Shown piece by piece: positions 3,426 to 60,342 of a stretch of 64,000 bases of DNA. This stretch comes from a virus. Lineage: Duplodnaviria; Heunggongvirae; Uroviricota; Caudoviricetes. Positions within the stretch are counted from its first letter, which is position 1; each line of letters starts with the position of its first letter. Position numbers and translations under genes: made by a program. The stretch is taken from the IMG/VR virus record IMGVR_UViG_3300045049_000270; one strand, written 5' to 3'. The notes under the pieces are model-generated. The model worked only from the letters and a program-made list of their open reading frames with translations, was not told where the DNA came from and did not search any database.

Positions 3426-4190
3426 GTGAGCGTTTATCTTCGGCACATACCAATCAAAGACATCAGCGTGCCAGTACTGAATGTCAGTGCTGGTAATAAA
3501 AATGTCCTAAGTGTTCCAACGCAGCTTGGTTGTCCGGTCGGTTGTTCATTTTGCGTATCAACTACCAATAAATTTGTTCGTAATCTCACTGCTGATGAGA
3601 TTGTTGATTTGGTGGTCAAAAATGCACCAAATCACCCATTTGTTCTTTCATTTACTGGCGAGGGTGATGTTCTCTTTAACACCGAGAATGTGAGCAATGC
3701 TTTATCAACCCTCTACACTCTTAGCATACCGATCACATCAGTTCGTTATTCGATAAGTGGGGTTGCATCCCGCCGGATACGTTTTCTTGATACTACCACT
3801 TTCCCTGCTGAGTTACAGGTGTCGATGCACACTTTTAATCAGTCGATTCGTGATAAGATGATTCCAAAATCTGATCCGATTTATCGGATTTTGGAATCCG
3901 TATCCATGCATTACGCATCGTTCTCCAAAATTAGAATCAACTATGTATTGCGTGAAGGATTGAATGATACTCCTGGCGATATTACCCACCTTAAGCATTG
4001 GGGACATAATGATTGGGACTTCATTCTTAACCCATTCCTCACGCCTAACGGTGCTATCGTACATCCACGTGTAGATGACATAGCTATGGAAATGTTCTTT
4101 TCGGGTAGAAATGTCTATGTGTTTCGCAATGTAGGCGAAGACATCTGCGATAACGAGATTTACAATAACCTTACGTATCGCCAGCATTGA
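3426..4190 (+). CDS. radical SAM enzyme
   Basis: CxxxCxxC cluster motif in LGCPVGCSFCVST near the N-terminus; GTG start. Confidence 0.6.
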   Translation: MSVYLRHIPIKDISVPVLNVSAGNKNVLSVPTQLGCPVGCSFCVSTTNKFVRNLTADEIVDLVVKNAPNHPFVLSFTGEGDVLFNTENVSNALSTLYTLSIPITSVRYSISGVASRRIRFLDTTTFPAELQVSMHTFNQSIRDKMIPKSDPIYRILESVSMHYASFSKIRINYVLREGLNDTPGDITHLKHWGHNDWDFILNPFLTPNGAIVHPRVDDIAMEMFFSGRNVYVFRNVGEDICDNEIYNNLTYRQH

Positions 4191-9490: not shown

Positions 9491-9611
9491 GCGCAAAAGT
9501 GTTTGACGCCATAGTGTACTTGCAATACAATATGGCTTAGTAGTTGCAGTAAACCTTAAGGTGGCGTTGATGGGACTCGAAAACTATCTCATCACTTTTA
9601 AGGAGCAGTTC

Positions 9612-10181
9612 ATGAAGAAAATCATGTCGTTGTTTCAACGTAACTACGAAGGGGATCGTAAGGTTCGTGACGAAGTTACTCCGGGTGCTGAATGGGTTGT
9701 TCAGGGTGAAGGTTACGCTACTCGTAAATGGGATGGCGTGGCTGTGTTGGTAAAGGATGGTCAAGTCTTTAAGCGTTACGACGCTAAGACTGGGAGAACA
9801 CCTCCCATTGACTTCATTCCTGCCCAACCTAACCCTGATCCGAAAAGCGGGCACTGGCCTGGTTGGGTTCCCGCTGAAGGCCCGGAATCGAAGTACATTC
9901 GAGAAGCTGTCGAATGGGCGCAGAAGAACAAGTTTGCCGGTGGAATCCCTGATGGCACATATGAAGCGTGTGGTCCCAAAATTGGGACACGTCACGGTGC
10001 TAATCCTGAAGGTTTGACCGAACACATTCTTGTTCCTCACGGTAAGGATATCTTAGAAGATTGCCCGCGCACGTTTGATGGCATCAAAGAATGGTTGCGC
10101 GACAAGCCTATCGAAGGCATTGTTTGGCATCACGAAGATGGTCGCCTTGTGAAAATCAAGAAAGCTGACTTTCCGTACTAA
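9612..10181 (+). CDS. ligase-family nucleotidyltransferase (small ATP-dependent RNA/DNA ligase-like)
   Basis: motif I RKWDG (KxDG); motif IV PIEGIVWHH (EGhV); motif V RLVKIKK; AAGGAG RBS before MKKIMSLF. Confidence 0.6.
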   Translation: MKKIMSLFQRNYEGDRKVRDEVTPGAEWVVQGEGYATRKWDGVAVLVKDGQVFKRYDAKTGRTPPIDFIPAQPNPDPKSGHWPGWVPAEGPESKYIREAVEWAQKNKFAGGIPDGTYEACGPKIGTRHGANPEGLTEHILVPHGKDILEDCPRTFDGIKEWLRDKPIEGIVWHHEDGRLVKIKKADFPY

Positions 10182-10311: not shown

Positions 10312-11547
10312 ATGCGGATCGCGATTACCGGTAACATTGGCTGTGGAAAATCCACATTCACGAAACTATTGGTGAAACATCTTACACCAAATTACACTCA
10401 AGCAAGCATCGATGAGATGGTTCACGAGCTTTATAAGAACACCGAATTTGCTAAGGAGCTGAAGGAACAATTCAGAACGGATGATCGCAAGCAAATATCG
10501 GATATCGTATTCAACGACCCAGAGCAACGTAAATGGCTTGAAGATTTGGTGAAAACGCACATGCGGTTGCGAATGATAAAAATCGACAGTCAGAATCACA
10601 TCGTAGTTGAATTTCCGCTGTTGTTTGAAATGTGCAATAATGACAAATACGATTTCATCATCACGTGTATGTGCGACGATGAGACGCAAGAAAAACGTGT
10701 GACTGCACGTGATGGCTTCACTGCCGAAAAAATCGCAAAGATTCGTGGTGCGCAACTCAGTACTATTGTGAAGTCGGCAATGTCGGATGAAACAATTGAC
10801 ACTAATGTTTCGCTTGAAGAGCTTGAAACTGAAGCTAAACGCATTGCTGGTAACATTGCTCGAAAAGATCTACGTTTATTCTTCCAAAGCGCCTTTTACA
10901 AAAAAGAAAAGGAAGCTGGTGAATTGTTCGACAATGCGATGAAACAATATCACGGTTTTGATCGGCACTGGCATAATGCAGATCACCCACTTGCTATGTA
11001 TCGATGGTTTATGTCGAATCTTGACAAATTCAACTATCCTGGCATTGCCGGTATTGCGATCATCTATCATGATGTGGTCTACAGTACGTATAAGACTCTG
11101 TATCCACATAATGAATCTCAAAGCGTTAAGTTCATGATTGATCAATTCAAAGCAATTATGCCAGAAGCATTGCGATTTGAAATTGAAGATGGTATCCCAT
11201 CACTCGCAGTTGCTGCTGAATACATCATGAGTACGAAAACGCATTCGGCTTCTTCGCATTTCTTGAAAGCCAATCCTAAGTTGAAAAACGATTGTGAATT
11301 GTTTCTTGATGTGGACTTGATGATGTTGGGTGGAACTCCCGAGGAGGCTGAAGCATTTGATGACGCAGTATATCAGGAGTTCAAAAATGAGTATGAAATT
11401 CGAACATTTGCTAGAGGCCGGGTTTCTGTATTGAAGACATTTTTGCGTCGACCAAAAGTTTTTCAATCATCGCACTTTGCACATCTCGAAGATAATGCAC
11501 GTGCAAACTTGGACACACTTATCAAGAAATGGGAGCGTTGGGTCTAA
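10312..11547 (+). CDS. coaE: dephospho-CoA kinase (CoaE) fused to a C-terminal HD-like domain
   Basis: N-terminal ~190 aa aligns with CoaE: MRIAITGNIGCGKST (P-loop), FNDPEQRKWLEDLV, PLLFE...; C-terminus has H..H / HD / H / D pattern (HWHNADH...IIYHD). Confidence 0.7.
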   Translation: MRIAITGNIGCGKSTFTKLLVKHLTPNYTQASIDEMVHELYKNTEFAKELKEQFRTDDRKQISDIVFNDPEQRKWLEDLVKTHMRLRMIKIDSQNHIVVEFPLLFEMCNNDKYDFIITCMCDDETQEKRVTARDGFTAEKIAKIRGAQLSTIVKSAMSDETIDTNVSLEELETEAKRIAGNIARKDLRLFFQSAFYKKEKEAGELFDNAMKQYHGFDRHWHNADHPLAMYRWFMSNLDKFNYPGIAGIAIIYHDVVYSTYKTLYPHNESQSVKFMIDQFKAIMPEALRFEIEDGIPSLAVAAEYIMSTKTHSASSHFLKANPKLKNDCELFLDVDLMMLGGTPEEAEAFDDAVYQEFKNEYEIRTFARGRVSVLKTFLRRPKVFQSSHFAHLEDNARANLDTLIKKWERWV

Positions 11548-12059
11548 TGTATACGATCGGTATGGTTACTGGATCGTTCGATCCAATCACACGAGGACAT
11601 GAATGGATGGTCGAACGTGCTTGTCGTACGTTCGATGAAGTCTACTTTGCGATTGCTTACAATCCAGCAAAGAAGGGAATGTTCAATTCGATCGAACGTG
11701 AGGAACTGGCACGGCGAGTGTTGGCTGACTCACTCACATCTGAGCTGTTCGAAAAGTTGAAGTTTGTAGTGATAGAAAATGAATTCACGGTCAGTGTGGC
11801 GAAGCGTCTAGGGGTGACCACAATCATGCGTGGCATTCGCAATGCTGTTGACTTTGGTTACGAGAAAGATATTCAAGGCTTCAACACCGATATCGAAAAT
11901 AGCATCGACCATGTCTTTGTAATTCCTCCCGAAGATATCACGCGTATCAGCTCATCAGCTGTGCGCGGGTTTGTCGGAATTAACAACTGGGAAGAAAAAG
12001 TGGCAAAATATATTCACCCATTTGTTCTGCAGGCGTTAGCAGATCGGGCGAATGTATGA
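11547..12059 (+). CDS. coaD: phosphopantetheine adenylyltransferase (PPAT/CoaD)
   Basis: GSFDPITRGH (T/HxGH motif), NPAKKGMFNSIEREEL, ISSSAVRG closely track E. coli CoaD; ATG overlaps the coaE stop (TAATG). Confidence 0.75.
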   Translation: MYTIGMVTGSFDPITRGHEWMVERACRTFDEVYFAIAYNPAKKGMFNSIEREELARRVLADSLTSELFEKLKFVVIENEFTVSVAKRLGVTTIMRGIRNAVDFGYEKDIQGFNTDIENSIDHVFVIPPEDITRISSSAVRGFVGINNWEEKVAKYIHPFVLQALADRANV

Positions 12060-32746: not shown

Positions 32747-32800
32747 TTGACACCATGTTCAGGTGAATGTATCATTTGAACATGGTAAAGAACAGGAGAT
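32747..32800 (+). promoter_or_regulatory. family-P promoter cassette (consensus copy)
   Basis: TTGACA-N17-TATCAT; CCATGTTCAGGTGAATG; TTGAACATGGTAAAGAACAGGAG. Confidence 0.65.
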
Positions 32801-32804
32801 AAAA

Positions 32805-33902
32805 ATGGTTATTTGGAAGGATATTGCTGTTCCCATCATCGAAAAACAGGTTCACATTCGTGCGCTTACTGGCGCCAAGTCTCGCCGTCGTTTCTCGTTT
32901 ATCAAGACTTTTGGCGATGTTCCTGTTGCCAACATTAACGAAATCACTGGCAAGCTTGAGCCTGTCGTCAACAATCGTGGTCGTGCTTATGCGGCACGCC
33001 TTCTGGAGCTCGACGCACAATTCCATTTTGTTGAGCAGCGTCCTCCCGCGCTGCGCGATGACGGCCCGGCGATCGCGCCTCACGGCCCTACATACCTCCC
33101 CGTCGTCGCGATTGAACGCGTCACTCACATCGGCGAGATGAACCCCGCCGCGCGCGACAGTACCGGGCAAAGCCTCGAAGGACATGCGCTGTCGGTCTCC
33201 ACGACACCCCACGCATGGGAGGAGATCGCCACCATCGGCGGTCGGCCGTGGTTTGAGCTGACGAACCACGATGCGAACTTCGTCGACGTCCTGGCACTGC
33301 TGGCCGACGAAACCCGGACAGCCGCATTACGCTCGTGGGCGCAGTCCGAAGGTCTGCTCCGACCGGAGCAACAATACCGCGCCTGGTATCTCGACACCGA
33401 TAGCGACGAATGGCACTACTTCGTCGCCGACTCGCGCGAAGCCGCATGGAGCGAGATCGATACCGGCGAATTCGATTCGCCCGACGATGCGCCTGGGCCC
33501 GACGGGAAACCGTGCATCGAACCGATCTGCCAATGGGTTGGCACGCCCGCCCTCGAATCGGCCGTCGGTCGAGTCGGTTTGAATCAGACCGAGAGCACGG
33601 ATATGGCCCTGATGATTTTCGTCGAGCGTCATTGTCCCGACATCGATGGCCTGTGGTGGACGGAGCAATACGATCCGCTGGCGCTCTCGGCGCCGCGCGG
33701 CGGAATACTTCCTGATCGGCTTGCTCGCTGGACGGCTACTCCGGTTTCCCGGCACCGGGTCGATGACGAAATCGCTTTGCCAGAAGCGAGCGAGATGCCA
33801 GTCCATCAGCCCGCGTTGAAGCCCGCTCATGAAGCGCAGCCAGTCGACGCAACGGCAAAGGATGCGCCGCATTCCCCACGTCGGCCCCCGCGGGCGCGAT
33901 GA
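32805..33902 (+). CDS. hypothetical protein encoded largely within a high-GC island
   Basis: family-P promoter at 32747; ORF becomes ~65% GC from ~32.9 kb; varied residue composition suggests real coding. Confidence 0.45.
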   Translation: MVIWKDIAVPIIEKQVHIRALTGAKSRRRFSFIKTFGDVPVANINEITGKLEPVVNNRGRAYAARLLELDAQFHFVEQRPPALRDDGPAIAPHGPTYLPVVAIERVTHIGEMNPAARDSTGQSLEGHALSVSTTPHAWEEIATIGGRPWFELTNHDANFVDVLALLADETRTAALRSWAQSEGLLRPEQQYRAWYLDTDSDEWHYFVADSREAAWSEIDTGEFDSPDDAPGPDGKPCIEPICQWVGTPALESAVGRVGLNQTESTDMALMIFVERHCPDIDGLWWTEQYDPLALSAPRGGILPDRLARWTATPVSRHRVDDEIALPEASEMPVHQPALKPAHEAQPVDATAKDAPHSPRRPPRAR

Positions 33903-34176
33903 CCTGATGCCTCGGCGCGGCAATGCCGTGCCGCGCCAGTTCGGCCACGCTGCCCGGCCCGACCACGCCGATCGGCACGGAGTCTGGCCAAGCGAAACCG
34001 GGGACTGCGCCGAGCGCACGTTCGATCGCGTTCGGCGAAACGAAGACGACGAGCGCATAACGCTCCAGCGAGGCGAAGGGAAAGAAACAACATGACAAGC
34101 GAACAGCGGAAAAAGAACGTGAGGGCAAGCGTGAAGTTGAGCGCGCAATGAAAACGAACAAGAGGGATATCTGAAT

Positions 34177-34410
34177 ATGCGAGCACGTGAACATCGTGGT
34201 GGATTGGCCGAATCACTGGCTACGGTCTTCAATTTCGAAACGAAGGAAGACTTGTTGACGGAAATTAACGAACGCATGGGGACACATTTTTGCCATGACG
34301 ACATTGCATTCCTTCATCAAGGAAAAGATGAACGCATTGGTTGGGATACTTACTTGGTGAGTGTGCGTGGCTATGGTGTGTTCGGATATACAGATGGGAT
34401 ACCAAAATAA
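34177..34410 (+). CDS. hypothetical protein (77 aa)
   Basis: AGAGGG RBS then ATG; stop overlaps the tpt1 start (ATAATG). Confidence 0.4.
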   Translation: MRAREHRGGLAESLATVFNFETKEDLLTEINERMGTHFCHDDIAFLHQGKDERIGWDTYLVSVRGYGVFGYTDGIPK

Positions 34411-34958
34411 TGAATGAAGACTTCAATAAAAAGTACAAAAAGCATAGTATTTGGTTGTCGTACTTGCTGCGACATGGTGCGAAAGAACAAAAAGTCAAAA
34501 TTGACAAACAAGCATTCATCCTAGTAGACGATGTGATAGCGGCGGGCAAGAAAGCAGGTTATGAATTTGATCTTGAAATCCTGAAAGGAATTGTTGCTAA
34601 CGATCAGAAGGGCCGTTATTCATTCAATGAAGACTTCACCAAAATTCGGGCAAACCAAGGACATTCCATTAATGTTGATCCTGGGTTGCAAAAAGCAGTG
34701 CCGCCAGTGATCTTGTATCACGGCACTTCAAGCGAAGCTTGGGAGATCATCAAGAAGAAAGGTCTCAATAAGATGACACGCACTCACGTTCATCTCACTG
34801 CTGACATTGAACTGGCTCGGAAACGGTTTCGAAAAACTGTAGTAATCGAAGTTGACTCTAAAGCTATGCTGGCTGATAAAGTTGATTTCTACAAGTCAGC
34901 AAATGATGTGTGGCTGGTTGATGCCGTAGATGCAAAGTATCTGAAGCTTGTGGAATGA
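34410..34958 (+). CDS. kptA: RNA 2'-phosphotransferase (Tpt1/KptA)
   Basis: near-collinear with E. coli KptA: WLSYLLRHG, GRYSF...IRANQGHS, VILYHGTSSEAWEIIKKKGL, RTHVHLTAD, NDVWLVD. Confidence 0.8.
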   Translation: MNEDFNKKYKKHSIWLSYLLRHGAKEQKVKIDKQAFILVDDVIAAGKKAGYEFDLEILKGIVANDQKGRYSFNEDFTKIRANQGHSINVDPGLQKAVPPVILYHGTSSEAWEIIKKKGLNKMTRTHVHLTADIELARKRFRKTVVIEVDSKAMLADKVDFYKSANDVWLVDAVDAKYLKLVE

Positions 34959-34965
34959 AATTCAC

Positions 34966-35025
34966 TTGACGCCACATTCAGGTGAACTTATCATCTGACG
35001 TACGGTAAACAACGTGAGGAGGGAA
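34966..35025 (+). promoter_or_regulatory. family-P promoter cassette
   Basis: TTGACG-N17-TATCAT; CCACATTCAGGTGAACT; CTGACGTACGGTAAACAACGTGAGGAGG. Confidence 0.55.
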
Positions 35026-35030
35026 ACGAG

Positions 35031-35402
35031 ATGTCCACAACGATCAAAGATTTCGGTCGCCACAGCGAACGTTTCGGTGACATCAGCCACTACTACGCAT
35101 TTCCTGTGCGTTTCTGGTTTGGCAACAGCCAGCTCACACCGGAAGATGTGTTGACGTGGCTGCGTGAAAATGCAAAGGGCTACTACAAGGTGGTGTGCTA
35201 CACGCACAAGGATTCCACGCGCGTCAAGGGTCGGCCGAAGGAATTCGAAAACCAGATCATCTACGTCGACAAAGTGTACTTGTCGAGCGAAGAAGACGCT
35301 GCGAAGATCAAGTTGTCGTTCGATGTTCGCGACGTGAAGGTCAAGCGTCCTCGTATCGCGGCGCGCCGCAAGAAAGTCAAGACCTACAAGACGAAGAAGT
35401 AA
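35031..35402 (+). CDS. hypothetical protein with Lys/Arg-rich C-terminal tail
   Basis: family-P promoter at 34966; GAGGAGGG RBS; tail KRPRIAARRKKVKTYKTKK. Confidence 0.45.
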   Translation: MSTTIKDFGRHSERFGDISHYYAFPVRFWFGNSQLTPEDVLTWLRENAKGYYKVVCYTHKDSTRVKGRPKEFENQIIYVDKVYLSSEEDAAKIKLSFDVRDVKVKRPRIAARRKKVKTYKTKK

Positions 35403-35541
35403 GCGGGTGAGGGGCGACAGCCCCTCAAACAGTTCAGTTAGTACTGGAGAATCCATGTAAGAAGTGCGTTTGGGCATTTGAGTATCATCCCATGTAGAGG
35501 CATTGGTTGGGGGCCAGCATTAAATGAACAGTGGAGGAAAT

Positions 35542-35898
35542 ATGGTTTACGATAGCGATTATCCGAATGAACCGATCGGAGGTGATAATCCTTATTATTG
35601 CTGCTCGTCTTGTAAACTTTCGGATCCACAGATCAACGGTGACATCAACAGACACCATTTCTGGTGTCTGTATCGTATTCAGAAGCAAGGTTACAAGCTA
35701 ACGTCAACGCAATATTACGATTTGCTTGATGAACTTGATCGTGAAGATCTACAAGACTACACGGTTGTGGTGATGGCGGCTCGTGATATGGAGAGTAACA
35801 ATATTGTCAGTGCTCTTGCCCGCTTGAAGGTTGATGCTGATAAGCTTCGTATGGTGAGCCCAAAATTGTACGCGATCATCTTGGCACAAAGCGCGTGA
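35542..35898 (+). CDS. hypothetical protein
   Basis: GGAGGAAATA then ATG. Confidence 0.45.
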   Translation: MVYDSDYPNEPIGGDNPYYCCSSCKLSDPQINGDINRHHFWCLYRIQKQGYKLTSTQYYDLLDELDREDLQDYTVVVMAARDMESNNIVSALARLKVDADKLRMVSPKLYAIILAQSA

Positions 35899-35907
35899 AA
35901 ACATCGC

Positions 35908-35963
35908 TTTACATCAAATTCATGCGAACATACTATCTGCGATAGGTAAACGAACAGGAGAAT
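35908..35963 (+). promoter_or_regulatory. family-P variant promoter
   Basis: TTTACA-N17-TACTAT; AATTCATGCGAACA; GATAGGTAAACGAACAGGAG. Confidence 0.45.
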
Positions 35964-35966
35964 CAG

Positions 35967-36305
35967 GTGATGGCCCGCCCGGGGAGCATCGAACAACGAA
36001 TATTGATGAAGCGACGTGCTCGTCGTATGGCCCATCCCTTCGAATCTTCGCCTGTGGCGGTAACGCTATACGGTGGTCAGACAGAACCCGTGCTGAAGGC
36101 AGATAAGGGCAAGATGGCGGGAAGTTGCAATCGTACCGCCTGCCAGGAACCTGGTGCAGTTTGGTGGAACCGTGGTTCGTATGCGTATTACTGCTACGAT
36201 TGCTCGAGGATGCTTAACCGAGCGAACCAGGATTTCCCAGAAGGCGATCTCTGCGTGCTTGATGTTAAGGCTCTTGAACTATTCGAGAAGAGGCAAGCAG
36301 CATGA
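35967..36305 (+). CDS. Cys-rich zinc-finger-like protein
   Basis: promoter at 35908; CNRTAC ... CYDCSRM; AGGAGAATCAG then GTG/ATG. Confidence 0.45.
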   Translation: MMARPGSIEQRILMKRRARRMAHPFESSPVAVTLYGGQTEPVLKADKGKMAGSCNRTACQEPGAVWWNRGSYAYYCYDCSRMLNRANQDFPEGDLCVLDVKALELFEKRQAA

Positions 36306-36979
36306 AGCTCTTTCATGGCACCACGAGTCGGCACCTACCTTCAATTCTGGCTGATGGTCTGACGCCGCGCAATCAAAACGAGATGAGTAACTGGGATCAT
36401 AGTATCCCCAGCAATGCTCAAACAGTATACCTGACTGATGCGTATGCTCTATACTTTGCAGCTCAAGCAAGCAAAGTTGATGAGCAGCTTGTCGTTCTAG
36501 AAATCGACACTAGTAAGATGAATCAGTATAAGTTTGTCGCTGATGAAGACGCGATTGAGCAAGCAACTCGCGGCCAGGACAAACTGCCGAAAGCTTGGGA
36601 TATGCATAAGCGAACCATGTTTTATCGCGAACGTGCTGATCAATACTCTTGGGAAGGAAGCCTAAAAGTGTTGGGCACTTGCGGATATCGCGGGGTAATA
36701 TCGCCACAAGCATTCACGAGAGTGGCTCTAGTTGAACCCAAACAGTTTGCAAGAATGGTTTGGTCTGGTTATGATCCGTCTATTACGGTAATGAATTACA
36801 GGATAGTTGGACATAATTATCGATTTGCTATGCGGTGGCTTTTTGATGAAAATGCTGAGCAAGAAGTTGATAATACAAACCCCTTCTCCGCAATTGGCAT
36901 TTTCAATATTCCCAAGACCCGTGAAGGCATTGAGGTTCTCGGGATTAATGAAGCAAAAATGCGGTTCATTGTAGAATAA
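36302..36979 (+). CDS. Tpt1/ADP-ribosyltransferase-fold paralog (catalytic lobe only)
   Basis: MKLFHGTTSRHLPSILADGL ... VYLTD parallels the Tpt1 LYHGT...GL...VHLTAD segment of the gene at 34410; ATGA overlap. Confidence 0.45.
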   Translation: MKLFHGTTSRHLPSILADGLTPRNQNEMSNWDHSIPSNAQTVYLTDAYALYFAAQASKVDEQLVVLEIDTSKMNQYKFVADEDAIEQATRGQDKLPKAWDMHKRTMFYRERADQYSWEGSLKVLGTCGYRGVISPQAFTRVALVEPKQFARMVWSGYDPSITVMNYRIVGHNYRFAMRWLFDENAEQEVDNTNPFSAIGIFNIPKTREGIEVLGINEAKMRFIVE

Positions 36980-37136
36980 GGCGTAAACCAGATTTAAATG
37001 AAACGTGGTATTCTTTTAAGATGAATAAGCATAAAATGCTTGTATAGGTGAGCAGGTGATGTTAGAGTTCATTTACACAAGCAGTTTTGTGGAAAGATTA
37101 GATCAAAAACTCACTTGAAGTAAAGGAGAATTTCAT

Positions 37137-37967
37137 ATGTCTTCGTTGGTTCTGCAATTCAACGGGGCGGCGGTCGAGCTGCTCCATGGTATCACCCGTC
37201 TTCGTGTCAAGACGATGAAGCGTGGGGGCGTTGAATACCTGGCCCTGCGCCCCAGCTACCGCGTTTCGGGTAAAAACATGCAAGCGCGCACGGCAAAAGC
37301 TGAAAGCGGAGCAACGCTGGTTGAAATTCCCGCAAGTTTCATCAAAGACCTCAAGTATCCTCGCCCCGAGCTCGGCACATCATTCCTGTTCCACAACGAC
37401 GGCTACGGATGGTTCACCTTGCGTGATCTTCCGGACGATGCAGCCGAATCGACCCCCACTTTGATCGTTGCGGACAGCGCGTTGATGAAGACAGCGACCC
37501 TGTCCGATGCAAAGGCTGAAGAACCGGCAAAAGAACCGAAGCAAGCCAAGGCCGACAAACTGCCCAAGCCCGACAAATTACCCAAGGCAGCAAAAGCTGA
37601 CAAGCCGAAAGCTGAACGCAAGGGCAAGTCGAAGCAAGTTGAAGCACAGCCCGAAGCGCCGACTGAGCCAACCAACGCTCAACCCGAAACGAACGCTGGG
37701 GCGACGGGTGGTGTAACGACAGAGCAACCCAGTGCGACGGCTGGTGAAGCACAAGACACGAGCTCGGCAGAGGCACTGATGCAGCACTTCGGCGCTGAAA
37801 GCAACGGCGAGCAAGCAACAGGCGAAACGACGAATGCACCGGCTGGTGATGCACAAGTCGAAGGCCAGACACCCGCTGCGGCAGCCGAAGCAAAAAATAC
37901 AACCGCTGCCGTGAAGAAAGCGTCGACTTCCAAGAAGGGCCAAGACAAGAAGGAAGCGCAAGCGTAA
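37137..37967 (+). CDS. protein with ~110 aa globular N-terminus and long Lys/Ala/Glu/Pro-rich low-complexity tail
   Basis: AAGGAG RBS; tail has KAEEPAKEPKQAKADKLPKPDKLPKAAKADKPKAE repeats; terminator at 37988. Confidence 0.5.
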   Translation: MSSLVLQFNGAAVELLHGITRLRVKTMKRGGVEYLALRPSYRVSGKNMQARTAKAESGATLVEIPASFIKDLKYPRPELGTSFLFHNDGYGWFTLRDLPDDAAESTPTLIVADSALMKTATLSDAKAEEPAKEPKQAKADKLPKPDKLPKAAKADKPKAERKGKSKQVEAQPEAPTEPTNAQPETNAGATGGVTTEQPSATAGEAQDTSSAEALMQHFGAESNGEQATGETTNAPAGDAQVEGQTPAAAAEAKNTTAAVKKASTSKKGQDKKEAQA

Positions 37968-37987: not shown

Positions 37988-38024
37988 AAGGCTAACCCCT
38001 TAAAGGGGTTAGCCTTTGTTTCAT
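37988..38024 (+). terminator. rho-independent terminator
   Basis: AAGGCTAACCCCTTAAAGGGGTTAGCCTTTGTTTC. Confidence 0.7.
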
Positions 38025-38036
38025 TGAGGTGGTGAG

Positions 38037-38309
38037 TTGGACAGCTATGAATTAGTGTATCCAGCCGCAATACCAGTGAAAGTGCATAAAGGTGGGCGAT
38101 TTGTGTTTGCCCGAAGCGTTGCTATCTTTGTATTGAATATGTTGCAGGAAGATGTAGACGAAGATGAGCAACTTGAATACACCACAATGGATAACGTAGA
38201 ACTAGGTGAATGTCTCCTTGCGGCAGGAGCCATACATGATAGTGTATTCGGTGGAGTTGTCGTTGATGGTGCTCCAAACGGTTTCATTCAAGCAGTTCAA
38301 ATAACATAG
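38037..38309 (+). CDS. hypothetical protein, paralog pair member 1
   Basis: VYPAAIPVKV...GGVVVDGAPNGF parallels the downstream gene. Confidence 0.4.
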   Translation: MDSYELVYPAAIPVKVHKGGRFVFARSVAIFVLNMLQEDVDEDEQLEYTTMDNVELGECLLAAGAIHDSVFGGVVVDGAPNGFIQAVQIT

Positions 38310-38317
38310 GTGATACT

Positions 38318-38602
38318 ATGAATGTTGAAAGACGAGCCGATTTTTTAAACGAACCAGTATATCCTGACTCCATTCCTATGAGTATCCCAGCTGGTTACAA
38401 ATGGGTATTCGCAAGGGAAGTAGCACTATCACTCTTGGGTAAGCAATTGCATTCTGACCCTAAGAGCGTAGGATTACATAGGCTAACCAATGATCAACTC
38501 GGCCAACAACTGGTCGAAATGAAAGTTCTATATCCCGAATATTTGGGAGGAGTTGTTGATGATGGTGAGCCCAATGGAATCATGCCTTTCCCCATTAAGT
38601 AA
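38318..38602 (+). CDS. hypothetical protein, paralog pair member 2
   Basis: VYPDSIPMSIP...GGVVDDGEPNGI. Confidence 0.4.
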   Translation: MNVERRADFLNEPVYPDSIPMSIPAGYKWVFAREVALSLLGKQLHSDPKSVGLHRLTNDQLGQQLVEMKVLYPEYLGGVVDDGEPNGIMPFPIK

Positions 38603-43307: not shown

Positions 43308-43382
43308 GCGTCTGTAGCTCAGTGGAAGAGCAGGGCCCTTACAAGGCCAAGGTCGGGAGTTCAACCCTCTCCAGACGCACCA
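43308..43382 (+). tRNA. tRNA-Val (anticodon UAC), CCA encoded
   Basis: hand-folded cloverleaf: acceptor GCGTCTG/CAGACGC, D-arm GCTC-AGTGGAA-GAGC, anticodon loop CTTACAA, T-arm GGGAG-TTCAACC-CTCTC, then A-CCA. Confidence 0.7.
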
Positions 43383-43423
43383 TTTTGGGGAATTAGCTCA
43401 GCTGGCGAAAGCTGGCCCCCGTT

Positions 43424-43500
43424 CTCCGGTTAGTATAGTCTGGTTAGTATACGTGGTTTGGGACCATGGGACGCAAGTTCGAATCTTGCACTGGAGACCA
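43424..43500 (+). tRNA. tRNA-like gene, possibly tRNA-Pro (UGG); D-arm non-canonical
   Basis: acceptor CTCCGGT/ACTGGAG, anticodon arm CGTGG-TTTGGGA-CCATG, T-arm GCAAG-TTCGAAT-CTTGC, A-CCA end; D-region holds a GGTTAGTATA direct repeat I could not fold cleanly. Confidence 0.4.
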
Positions 43501-52059: not shown

Positions 52060-52731
52060 ATGGCAACCCACCAGAAGCTCGTAACACCTGAAGTCCTTCA
52101 TTACGAAAAGTTGAAGATGGCTCTTCGTTATCAGTTGATGGGACGAGCTTCTCGTGATTCTGTTTGGTACGTTGCAATCAAGGCACTAGACCTTGGCCTC
52201 ATGTATCATACGGGTTTTCGCAAAGACGGCAAAACACCGGAATTCCAGCACCAGATCGAAATTGCGCTGTATCTCCTGACCATGGAGAAACTGTTGATCG
52301 ATGCGCCACGCACGATCGCTGATGCTCTGCTTCATGACCTAGGTGAAGATTACGGTCATCAAATCAGCTTCGAAGAAATTGGCGAGCAAACTGACAAAAT
52401 CATCGAAATTGATTGTCGTCTACTTGCGAAAGAATACCGTGGTGAAAGGAAAACCACAGATGAATACTTTGAACCACTGGCCGGTAATTTCCGTGTGTCA
52501 GTTGTGAAAGGCAGCGATCGCGTGCATAATATGCGAACGATGGCTGGTGTGTTCAAGCTGGAAAAGCAAATCAGTTACTGCGATGAAACGGAAGAACATT
52601 TCTTCCCGTTCTTGAAAGCTGCACGGCGCAATTTCCCTGAACAAGAACCAGTTTACGAAAACATTAAATTCAACCTTACAACTCAGCTACGAATTTATCG
52701 TAGCGTAAACGCTCAAGGCATTGCAGCATGA
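52060..52731 (+). CDS. small alarmone hydrolase: (p)ppGpp hydrolase HD domain (SpoT/Mesh1-like)
   Basis: HQIEIALYLL, ALLHDLGEDYG, RVSVVKGSDRVHNMRTM parallel the RelA/SpoT hydrolase motifs (LLHDvvED; ADRLHNMRTL); GAGGAGCCAAC then ATG. Confidence 0.7.
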   Translation: MATHQKLVTPEVLHYEKLKMALRYQLMGRASRDSVWYVAIKALDLGLMYHTGFRKDGKTPEFQHQIEIALYLLTMEKLLIDAPRTIADALLHDLGEDYGHQISFEEIGEQTDKIIEIDCRLLAKEYRGERKTTDEYFEPLAGNFRVSVVKGSDRVHNMRTMAGVFKLEKQISYCDETEEHFFPFLKAARRNFPEQEPVYENIKFNLTTQLRIYRSVNAQGIAA

Positions 52732-57302: not shown

Positions 57303-58220
57303 ATGAAACGTTTCATCGCTAGTCTCGTCGGCTCGCTGACAGCACTGATCCTCTTTTCATCGGTTGCTCAAGCGCAGTCGCTGGTGGTTGCAACGGGCGA
57401 TCCTAAGCTAACATACTCGACGATGTTCAAGGAACTATCGGGCCGATGCCAGAGTGTTTCACTGCGTGAGGTGAATTCTAATGGCTCGAATGCAAACCTC
57501 GACATGCTCGAACAGAACAAAGTGAACGCCGCGATCGTGCAAACTGATGCTCTATTCTGGCGTTCGCGATCGGAAGATGATCTGAACAATGTTCGAACCC
57601 TGTTTACTTTGTATCCAGAAGAAGTCCACTTCGTCGCTCGAGCAGATGGCGTGCATGAAGGTGGGGTGAGCCTCGGTGGTTTCTCGATCGGTGGCAAGCA
57701 AGTGATCTTCAACAATATTGGTGACCTGAATGGTCACAACGTTGGCGCCGTCGGCGGATCAGCATTAACTGCTGAAGTGATCAAAGCGTTGACCAAGATC
57801 AATTACAACATCGTCAAGTTCTCGTCAAACGACGAAGCCTCGAAAGCGCTACAAGCTGGTAATATCGACGCGTTCATTGCTGTCGGTGGAGCACCGCTCT
57901 CGACCGTCGCAAATCTTGATCAACGCTTCAAGCTGCTCATGATCACGCCACAGCAACAAGGTATTCTGGCTAAGGTTTACAAGCCTGCACGTGTCAGCTA
58001 TGGTAACCTTGGGCAGCGTGGTGTACCGACGGTTGCTACGGAAGCTTTGATGGTCTCGCGTGTTTACAGTTCGGCTCAGATGCTCGATGGTCTGAAGCGA
58101 TTCCGCCAGTGCGAAGTACAAGCGCTACCTGATCTTAAGGACACTGTTGGAACGCACCCGAAGTGGCAAGTGGTCGAAGCAGGCAACAAGGGTTTGTGGA
58201 CGTTCTACGACTTCAAGTAA
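57303..58220 (+). CDS. periplasmic substrate-binding protein, TAXI-type TRAP transporter receptor-like
   Basis: signal peptide ...SSVAQAQS; SBP-like sequence; AAGGAG RBS; terminator at 58242. Confidence 0.5.
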   Translation: MKRFIASLVGSLTALILFSSVAQAQSLVVATGDPKLTYSTMFKELSGRCQSVSLREVNSNGSNANLDMLEQNKVNAAIVQTDALFWRSRSEDDLNNVRTLFTLYPEEVHFVARADGVHEGGVSLGGFSIGGKQVIFNNIGDLNGHNVGAVGGSALTAEVIKALTKINYNIVKFSSNDEASKALQAGNIDAFIAVGGAPLSTVANLDQRFKLLMITPQQQGILAKVYKPARVSYGNLGQRGVPTVATEALMVSRVYSSAQMLDGLKRFRQCEVQALPDLKDTVGTHPKWQVVEAGNKGLWTFYDFK

Positions 58221-59373: not shown

Positions 59374-59481
59374 ACGTTGTTAAAGCAATCCCAGATGAAA
59401 TAAATATTTCAAAACAAAATTGGCACGGGCATTGTATAATAGATGTCTGTGCCATTTGCCAATTATTTTCTGGAGATTGTC

Positions 59482-60342
59482 GTGCAACATATCGAAGTTA
59501 CTTTAGCAGCAATCGGCGAAGGCGCCCAGATCATGGAGTGCAAATCAGGGCCTCTTGCACTCCGAGAACATATTTCAAAGCTTCCTATTCCCCTTCAATG
59601 GGGATCTTTTATAACCAGTGATGCTTCTTTGCTGGAACACGGTAAATTGGCGGTGGTCGAAGAATATATGCCAAGACTTGCCAATGCCGTACATTCTACA
59701 CTCTCAAAAGAACGTTTCCCTCTCGTAATTGGCGGTGATCATTCCTGTGCAATTGGCACTTGGAGTGCAATAGCTAATTTCTATCGAACAATGGGTGATA
59801 TTGGTCTAATCTGGATTGATGCTCATCTTGACAGTCATACTCCACAAACATCTGAAAGCGGAGCTCCTCATGGTATGCCTCTAGCTTGCCTTCTAGGATA
59901 TGGCAGCCGCAATCTCACCACCATACACGATGTTGTTCGAAAGCTACGTCCTCAAAATGTAGTGGTGATCGGAGCACGGAGCAGTGAAAAGGGTGAAGAA
60001 GATCTACTAGAAAGCCTTGGCGTTCGCGTTATGCGAATTGAAGAAGTGCATGACCGTGGTTTCGATGTTTGCTTAGACGAAGCTATTGAAATAGTTTCAA
60101 AAGAAACTGTTGGTTATGGCATCACATTTGACATTGATAGTCTGGATCCTATTGATGCACCAGGAGTTGGTTCACCAGAAGATGGTGGGTTGTGGCTATC
60201 TGATGTAGTAAGGACATTTGAAAGTATGAACAAACGCAAGTTGATTGGCTTCGAATTGGTCGAATATAATCCAGAGCGTGATTCTGGCGACCTTCGCACT
60301 GCCAAAGCTTGTGTTGCTATTCTTGATGCAATTTTGCCATAA
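59482..60342 (+). CDS. arginase/agmatinase-family ureohydrolase
   Basis: binuclear-Mn motifs GGDHS, DAHLDSHT, DIDSLDP; GGAG RBS then GTG. Confidence 0.65.
   Translation: MQHIEVTLAAIGEGAQIMECKSGPLALREHISKLPIPLQWGSFITSDASLLEHGKLAVVEEYMPRLANAVHSTLSKERFPLVIGGDHSCAIGTWSAIANFYRTMGDIGLIWIDAHLDSHTPQTSESGAPHGMPLACLLGYGSRNLTTIHDVVRKLRPQNVVVIGARSSEKGEEDLLESLGVRVMRIEEVHDRGFDVCLDEAIEIVSKETVGYGITFDIDSLDPIDAPGVGSPEDGGLWLSDVVRTFESMNKRKLIGFELVEYNPERDSGDLRTAKACVAILDAILP

Follow-up and report, generated by a model that had tools for sequence, protein, structure and literature searches.

A Tpt1/KptA homolog and a stand-alone ADP-ribosyltransferase-fold protein occur independently of each other in uncultivated phages

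RNA 2'-phosphotransferases of the Tpt1/KptA family consist of an N-terminal winged-helix lobe that binds RNA and a C-terminal lobe that binds NAD+, and Shuman's group has reportedly proposed an origin of Tpt1 in the fusion of an NAD+ lobe to a winged-helix domain. The essential residues of Clostridium thermocellum Tpt1 (CthTpt1) form a tetrad of Arg18, His19, Arg68 and Arg121 (PMC6333775), and KptA in jumbo phages has been discussed as an NAD+-dependent tRNA-repair function (Iyer et al. 2022, PMC9503650). DarT enzymes are ADP-ribosyltransferases (ARTs) that modify bases of single-stranded DNA. In DarT1, Arg52 and Asp54 are catalytic, Glu152 (in QAEVLV) is characteristic of ARTs, and Asn104 of the "NAA" motif, where the ADP-ribosylating toxin turn-turn (ARTT) substrate loop starts, coordinates the target base (PMC11543638). 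Here we describe a 64,000-nucleotide stretch of viral DNA (IMG/VR record IMGVR_UViG_3300045049_000270; hereafter the window) with two open reading frames (ORFs) that resemble these enzymes, ORF A (34410-34958, plus strand, 182 amino acids) and ORF B (36302-36979, plus strand, 225 amino acids). Taken as a whole, the results are best explained if ORF A is a genuine Tpt1, ORF B is a stand-alone ART, and the two are independent of each other, a reading to which we assign a probability of about 0.6.

Architecture and predicted active sites of ORF A and ORF B

ORF A matches PF01885 over residues 11-171 of 182, on profile positions 5-176 of 177 (E = 4.6e-43, 147.7 bits, cutoff 26), and PHROG 5470, "RNA 2'-phosphotransferase" (E = 6e-51). 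It also matches 13 solved Tpt1 sequences, best among them 7kw8 (tRNA 2'-phosphotransferase, E = 2e-40), and aligns end to end with CthTpt1 (6e3a) in HMMER. In this alignment Arg21 (34470-34472), His22 (34473-34475), Arg80 (34647-34649) and Arg124 (34779-34781) of ORF A fall on the CthTpt1 tetrad positions. The first-pass annotation of this DNA, made from the sequence alone, had called the protein collinear with KptA/Tpt1, and its motifs LLRHG, KIRANQGHS, LYHGT and HVHLTAD are indeed all present, as is the complete tetrad. The tetrad, the His104-Gly105-Thr106 motif of the NAD+ lobe (starting with H104 at 34719-34721) and His128 are invariant among 26 homologs. Alignment to the solved Tpt1s places both an RNA lobe at the N terminus and an NAD+ lobe at the C terminus, with its His-Gly-Thr, in ORF A. 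The longest possible ORF begins at a TTG at 34341. We take 34410 as the correct start, because the ATG there overlaps with the upstream gene's stop (TAATG) and coincides with where 182-amino-acid homologs begin. By its sequence, ORF A is a genuine and complete two-lobe Tpt1/KptA. Judged by family membership, its winged-helix lobe (R21, H22 and R80) and R124 of the C-terminal lobe would bind an RNA 2'-phosphate in this phage, and since Tpt1 chemistry can also cap 5'-phosphate ends, ORF A might do so as well. Tpt1 is found in 303 IMG/VR contigs and in 98 GenBank phage records, the latter with less than 60% identity to ORF A and mostly from jumbo phages of Erwinia, Klebsiella, Serratia, Dickeya and Clostridioides. 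Large phages are already documented to carry Tpt1, and ORF A adds nothing new in this respect.

ORF B starts with MKLFHGTTSRHLPSILADGL, directly in the catalytic lobe and without the N-terminal winged-helix lobe, as the first-pass annotation had observed; the start lies at the same Met in about 90% of 167 relatives. The further description of ORF B as a truncated paralog of Tpt1 does not stand. A word-indexed search found 21 relatives, all annotated as "hypothetical". When 1.84 billion cluster representatives were searched with a profile, 2,153 scored E<=1e-3, 800 of them E<=1e-30. The best 150 of the 2,153 representatives are 199-292 amino acids long, with matches that span most of the profile in nearly every case; the median length of the family is 231 amino acids. 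Because these relatives have similar lengths and match most of the profile, ORF B is a normal full-length member of its own large family of proteins of about 230 amino acids, with a 45-residue insertion and a C-terminal region of its own. In pairwise comparison, the similarity between ORF B and ORF A reaches only 30%, across 71 residues (E = 0.039), and ORF B is therefore not a recent duplicate of ORF A.

Existing family models do not capture ORF B. It scores 14.0 bits against PF01885 (PTS_2-RNA; cutoff 26, E = 0.052, residues 3-30 only), 15.4 bits against PF14487 (DarT; cutoff 22.5, E = 0.016) and 19 against the NCBIfam Tpt1 equivalog (threshold 239). In 54 diverse relatives no Pfam or NCBIfam threshold was reached, and weak matches were limited to Tpt1, PARP, DarT and AbiGI; a single one of the 54 reached E = 6e-4 against the DarT profile. 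PADLOC returned nothing for 54 family members, and the PHROG match of ORF B is to the function-unknown phrog_13493 (E = 9.5e-6). Relatives were found in 93 IMG/VR contigs of 38-607 kb. When ORF B and two divergent relatives were compared with 50,697 GenBank phage records by tblastn, none matched at E<=1e-3, and relaxing the cutoff to E<=10 brought up no more than an uncultured 484-kb phage (E = 5e-3) and Tpt1 genes from Klebsiella and Serratia jumbo phages. Among prokaryotes, represented by one genome for each of 185,579 species, only two contigs match the family, both from archaeal metagenome-assembled genomes. These two contigs (L091 and L092, 23.5 and 30.9 kb), binned as Nitrososphaerota and Bathyarchaeia, could be viral contigs that were binned wrongly, or could come from archaeal viruses. 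The ORF B family is a large, virus-restricted and uncharacterised ART family.

The AlphaFold2 model of ORF B, computed from a 20-sequence alignment, has a predicted local distance difference test (pLDDT) score of 88.4 and a predicted template-modelling score (pTM) of 0.87, and predicts the split six-strand beta-sheet of an NAD+-binding ART fold with a Tpt1-type NAD+ lobe. In a Foldseek comparison of the model with the PDB, the top matches are all ARTs, although weak (best E = 1.7e-3, TM ~0.36), and 83 residues of ORF B superpose on the NAD+ lobe of Tpt1 at 1.6 Å with 29% identity. Comparison of family profiles by hhalign aligns ORF B residues 2-73 with Tpt1 residues 101-153 (96-97%, E = 1.6e-9) and ORF B residues 3-90 with DarT1 (91.4%, E = 8.8e-7), the DarT1 family alignment having been built from plasmid-borne DarT1 genes. 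These results demonstrate the homology of ORF B to the Tpt1 and DarT1 families, and the fold is the Tpt1/ART fold that the first-pass annotation had expected. In the model, beta1 (residues 2-8, LFHGT), beta2 (41-45, VYLT), beta3 (63-69, VVLEID) and beta4 (78-80) make up the Tpt1-type lobe (residues 1-81, 36302-36544). They are followed by a helical insertion at the position of the ARTT loop (residues 82-125, 36545-36676) with three helices at residues 82-124, by beta5 (126-130) and beta6 (138-144; together residues 126-144, 36677-36733), and by a helical and beta C-terminal region (residues 145-225, 36734-36976).

Conservation was counted over 167 family representatives with mean identity of ~27-45%. 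Seven residues never vary, namely His5 (36314-36316), Gly6, Tyr43 (36428-36430), Asp81, Glu82 and Asp83 (36542-36550), and Gly125; at least 89% conserved are Arg23, Asn30, Trp31, Ser37, Tyr48, Glu67, Gln87, Arg104, Arg109, Ser120, Arg140, Asp158 and Asn165. The predicted NAD-contact residues H5, G6, T7, I15 and Y43 are all invariant or nearly so. H5 (kept in 165 of 165 sequences) and Y43 (167 of 167) align with H104 and H128 of Tpt1, so that Tyr43 stands where Tpt1 has its second His. The full Tpt1 tetrad cannot be present in ORF B, because three of its members sit in the missing lobe and the fourth, R124, aligns opposite the non-conserved ~Q25; a 95%-conserved arginine, R23, is found in that loop two residues before this position. 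The catalytic R52 and D54 of DarT1 align opposite S34 and P36 of ORF B. There is also no conserved acid before beta5, and the position of the canonical Glu is occupied by the invariant G125 (G125-T126). The invariant Asp-Glu-Asp (DED) directly follows beta4, where Glu82 aligns with Asn104 of the DarT1 NAA motif. Since beta4 ends next to where beta5 begins in ART folds, the DED cluster may reach the junction of acceptor and NAD+ and replace the missing Glu. The pattern of conservation argues for an active enzyme.

Independence of ORF A and ORF B in syntenic relatives

The two ORFs lie in a run of small genes, all on the same strand (34177-37967, plus strand). Upstream of ORF A is a 77-amino-acid gene (phrog_8785, 34177-34410). 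ORF A is followed by genes of 123 (35031-35402) and 124 amino acids (35524-35898), neither with a Pfam or PHROG match, by a gene for a Cys-rich protein of 112 amino acids (phrog_13772, 35967-36305), whose stop overlaps the start of ORF B (ATGA), and, 3' of ORF B, by a low-complexity gene of 276 amino acids (37137-37967). ORF B is thus the fourth gene after ORF A, with three ORFs in between, and not two genes downstream as had been stated. Promoter and terminator scans of the locus gave results no better than those of shuffled sequence, except for a strong, terminator-like hairpin followed by T residues at 37988-38016, after the 276-amino-acid gene. Comparison with related contigs reveals a syntenic backbone in which the 77-amino-acid gene, the Tpt1 site, the genes of 123 and 124 amino acids, the site of a small gene plus ORF B, the 276-amino-acid gene and two paralogous genes of about 90 amino acids follow one another. 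The genes of 123 and 124 amino acids are present in all syntenic relatives with 72-96% identity. The 77-amino-acid gene is a flank and not a partner of Tpt1, because it is retained in relatives with and without Tpt1.

On this backbone the two ORFs come and go separately. Both are present in the window and in two relatives (L089 and L090). ORF B is present and Tpt1 is missing in six others (L001-L006), including a 523,837-bp sister contig, and in two of them (L004 and L005) the genes of 77 and 123 amino acids directly abut; in L006 ORF B was confirmed by tblastn, while the absence of Tpt1 comes from a phmmer scan only. Three relatives (L086-L088) have Tpt1 and lack ORF B, and the homolog of the 276-amino-acid gene follows directly after the 124-amino-acid gene, forming an empty ORF B site. 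Beyond this backbone, no Tpt1 was found near ORF B in any of 85 other loci (phmmer with ORF A against all ORFs within +/-6 kb). The functional pairing of the two proteins proposed in the first-pass annotation is therefore not supported. Blastp clustering of all ORFs at 86 loci revealed no recurrent neighbor family around ORF B, the largest being found in eight loci, all of them close relatives, and Pfam comparison of 150 non-redundant neighbors of the family revealed no enrichment of Macro, NADAR, ARH, antitoxin or RNA-repair genes. These results demonstrate that ORF A and ORF B occur independently, and the two are best read as NAD+-using accessory genes that do not form a pathway.

We also considered the Cys-rich gene as a partner of ORF B. 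It is translationally coupled to ORF B, but is not kept beyond the closest relatives (L004-L006, L089 and L090), and this candidate was rejected. An unrelated gene of 85 amino acids takes its slot in L001-L003, and in L086-L088 it is absent together with ORF B.

The RNA-repair context that had been suggested for ORF A was not found either, and no partner that would make its substrate is visible here. Among window ORFs of at least 110 amino acids, no 2H phosphoesterase, Macro, Nudix, polynucleotide kinase, NAD-salvage gene or Trl1-type ligase was detected by Pfam. The first-pass annotation had placed a ligase nearby. An RNA-ligase-like ORF of the RLIG1 type does exist (9561-10181, with a KWDG motif; PF17720, E = 2e-10) and is the sole ligase in the window, but it lies about 24 kb upstream of ORF A. 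A PHROG "RNA ligase" match (E = 1.7e-86), recorded for a window ORF whose position was not noted, is probably this same RLIG1-like ORF. Ligases of the RLIG1 type seal a 5'-phosphate to a 3'-hydroxyl and do not create 2'-phosphate junctions. In other phages, a KxDG ligase adjoins Tpt1 in 13 of 84 loci and a Macro-like protein, called by eye from the sequence without a family search, in nine of 84. Taken together, the first observation of a Tpt1 and a second Tpt1-like lobe on this DNA is confirmed, with ORF A a canonical Tpt1, while the truncated paralog, the pairing and the RNA-repair context are not.

Proposed role of ORF B and alternative explanations

It is most likely that ORF B is a stand-alone NAD+-dependent ART acting on a host macromolecule, although its catalysis, acceptor and biological role are ones that we infer. 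During infection the protein would bind NAD+, expel nicotinamide and move ADP-ribose onto the acceptor, which the DED cluster could position or activate. Nucleic acid, with either a base or a terminal phosphate as the site, is our first guess for the acceptor because both nearest relatives, Tpt1 and DarT, act on nucleic acids; we favor it only weakly, ahead of protein and at somewhat less than even odds. ADP-ribosylation of RNA or DNA ends, or a role in counter-defence, as had been proposed for this locus, is possible. A more specific version is tentative and, with all its parts, rather unlikely to be correct: the ORF B family would be virus-only nucleic-acid ARTs, built from a free-standing Tpt1-type NAD+ lobe with a relocated Asp-Glu-Asp in place of the beta5 Glu, that mark or block host RNA or DNA, or shield that of the phage, at a base or terminal phosphate and without a dedicated reversing enzyme. 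If true, this would represent a new catalytic arrangement and a new activity in phage takeover or counter-defence, widespread in environmental phages and absent from cultured ones.

Several points weigh against a stand-alone nucleic-acid ART. The family is not basic (median isoelectric point, pI, ~7; 6.0 for ORF B), unlike many nucleic-acid-binding ARTs, and the missing canonical beta5 Glu could mean that the chemistry is not that of a transferase. The placement of the DED by the NAD+ site rests on profile alignment and beta-hairpin topology. Moreover, the neighborhoods of relatives were inspected within +/-6-8 kb, and a partner encoded farther away is possible. Should the acceptor be a host protein, ORF B might serve takeover like Alt, ModA and ModB of T4 or disable a defence like AcrIF11. 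We find this doubtful, though well worth keeping in mind, since sequence profiles detect only Tpt1 and DarT and since ORF B has neither the R-S-E signature nor the beta5 Glu of protein-modifying toxins. The large conserved insertion at the ARTT position, together with an 80-residue C-terminal region that contains several conserved Arg, suggests a macromolecular substrate, and Macro, NADAR, Nudix or NAD-salvage genes are not consistently linked to ORF B. It is therefore improbable that ORF B has a small-molecule substrate or does no more than consume NAD+, be it as an NADase, a phosphorylase or an Arr-like enzyme, or by destroying or making an ADP-ribose-derived immune signal.

The presence and absence of the two ORFs among relatives contradicts the idea that ORF B is a truncated Tpt1 paralog that, together with ORF A and a ligase, serves RNA repair or end-capping. 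The two genes are 1.3 kb apart on the same strand, the NAD lobe of ORF B is most like that of Tpt1, and an RNA-ligase-like ORF is present in the window. But each gene occurs without the other, and the 85 other ORF B loci are without Tpt1; the pairwise E-value is no better than 0.039, and ORF B belongs to a separate family with 2,153 representatives and a length of about 230 amino acids. Three genes and a promoter-like site, the latter from scans that perform no better than on shuffled sequence, lie between ORF A and ORF B, and the ligase is 24 kb away and of a type that does not make 2'-phosphate junctions. We consider this explanation very unlikely. Just as little credence is given to ORF B being a catalytically dead ART-fold module with a binding or structural function: it is true that the protein has neither the canonical Glu nor the catalytic residues of Tpt1 and DarT, but H5, G6, T7, I15, Y43 and the DED are invariant or nearly invariant in 167 divergent representatives, which is the pattern of an active site.

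A stand-alone ART would be of interest in several respects. The family flagged by ORF B numbers more than 2,000 clusters when grouped at 50% identity; no model in Pfam, NCBIfam or PADLOC matches it above threshold, its only PHROG match is function-unknown, and it has no member in a cultured phage and no detectable bacterial home. ORF B also offers a natural case of a Tpt1-type NAD+ lobe without the RNA-binding lobe, and of an ART active site that lacks the hallmark Glu. Should the family prove active on nucleic acids, it would lengthen the short list of enzymes that ADP-ribosylate RNA or DNA and add a new activity to phage-host conflict. The relatives with both ORFs, with ORF B only and with ORF A only, on one syntenic backbone, form a ready comparison set.

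The wider window and comparison with known systems

No megablast match to the 64-kb window was found among GenBank phages. A protein identical to ORF B is recorded from contigs as long as 523,572 bp, and the same arrangement of ORF A and ORF B is also found on a 218,697-bp contig; we infer an uncultivated megaphage of about 520 kb as the source. In the genome of ~43% GC, a block of 1.1 kb with 62-70% GC (33000-34100) lies inside an ORF at 32763-33902, joined in frame to roughly the first 70 residues encoded by a phage gene, which in the sister phage has only 89 amino acids. For the high-GC part, neither Pfam nor the PDB gave a match. Since the same 379-amino-acid ORF is also present in a second sample (L089), the block looks like a recent foreign insertion adjoining the Tpt1 insertion site. 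Sister phages have in this slot a gene of 71 amino acids, SmpB and a gene of 122 amino acids. This SmpB homolog (PF01668), the partner of transfer-messenger RNA (tmRNA), is located about 2 kb upstream of ORF B in the Tpt1-less sister megaphages L001-L005 (e.g., 3653-4108 in L004); in the window, SmpB is absent from that position and there is no tmRNA. Downstream, the two tandem genes of about 90 amino acids (38037-38309 and 38318-38602) appear to be diverged paralogs, each cross-matching the homolog of the other in relatives with ~33-36% identity, and the pair is kept in relatives.

Around the RLIG1-like ORF, a Trl1-like set of ligase, kinase and cyclic phosphodiesterase was considered and rejected. 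The "kinase" is a CoaE-like dephospho-CoA kinase fused to an HD-like C-terminal half (411 amino acids, 10312-11547) and is followed by a PPAT-like cytidylyltransferase gene (11529-12059), and these genes therefore point to coenzyme A (CoA) synthesis and not to end-healing. The pair would supply the last two steps of CoA synthesis from a phage-borne source. In the closest Tpt1-bearing relatives a nicotinamide phosphoribosyltransferase of the NAMPT/NadV type is encoded 3-4 kb upstream of Tpt1 (3380-4903 in L086 and 3277-4803 in L087), with a gene like T4 rIIB downstream; NAMPT was not found in the window. Elsewhere in the window there are adjacent tRNA genes for Val(TAC) and Pro(TGG) at 43308-43500, which are the sole Rfam and ARAGORN matches in the 64 kb, an arginase/agmatinase-family protein (59443-60342, E = 2e-56), an NMT1-like protein (57303-58220), a radical-SAM protein (3426-4190), an HD_4 phosphohydrolase (52060-52731), an S-adenosylmethionine (AdoMet) decarboxylase match whose ORF was not located, and several HNH and GIY-YIG homing endonucleases.

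Compared with the Tpt1/KptA family (PF01885; CthTpt1 6e3a, RslTpt1 7kw8, and 9ld3), ORF A has the same length, the same two lobes, the tetrad and the HGT and VHL motifs. It is the enzyme used by phage RNA-repair clusters, such as those with T4 Pnkp and Rnl1-type proteins or with Tpt1, 2H, Macro and ligase genes, but in the window it is without those neighbors and is a single-gene insertion between two backbone genes. ORF B differs from the single-stranded DNA base ADP-ribosyltransferases DarT1 and DarT2 (PF14487; 8baq and 7omu) in having neither the Arg52/Asp54 pair nor Glu152 of QAE(V/I)LV. It also has no DarG, NADAR or other antitoxin as a neighbor, and is found on viral contigs of lytic type and not in bacterial toxin-antitoxin loci.

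Like ORF B, the fast-evolving ARTs of jumbo phages (the viral H-Y-[EDQ] families of Iyer et al. 2022) are stand-alone phage ARTs with no assigned target. Tblastn against the phage records described above gave no sequence-level match of ORF B to these jumbo-phage ART paralogs at E<=1e-3. The nearest structures to ORF B in BFVD are uncharacterised proteins of Vibrio phage nt-1 (R9TEX3), seven paralogs of Bacillus phage G (Gp53, 233, 336, 610 and 532 among the best matches) and Ralstonia phiRSL1 (E = 2e-7 to 1e-3, TM 0.33-0.47). These proteins are among the jumbo-phage ARTs of Iyer et al., and the best matches, to the nt-1 and phage G proteins, have E = 2e-7 to 4e-5 and TM 0.38-0.47. Where the H-Y-[EDQ] clade has an acidic or amide catalytic residue at the start of beta5, ORF B has none, and has the invariant DED at the end of beta4 instead. 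With Tpt1, ORF B has in common the entire NAD+ lobe, including H-G-T, the Ile on helix 1 (Ile15 in ORF B) and the beta2 and beta3 strands. It differs from Tpt1 in the missing winged-helix RNA lobe, in a 14-residue loop (with Asn30-Trp31) between helix 1 and beta2, in the 45-residue insertion between beta4 and beta5, which lies where the substrate-binding ARTT position is in other ARTs, and in its 80-residue C-terminal extension and invariant DED.

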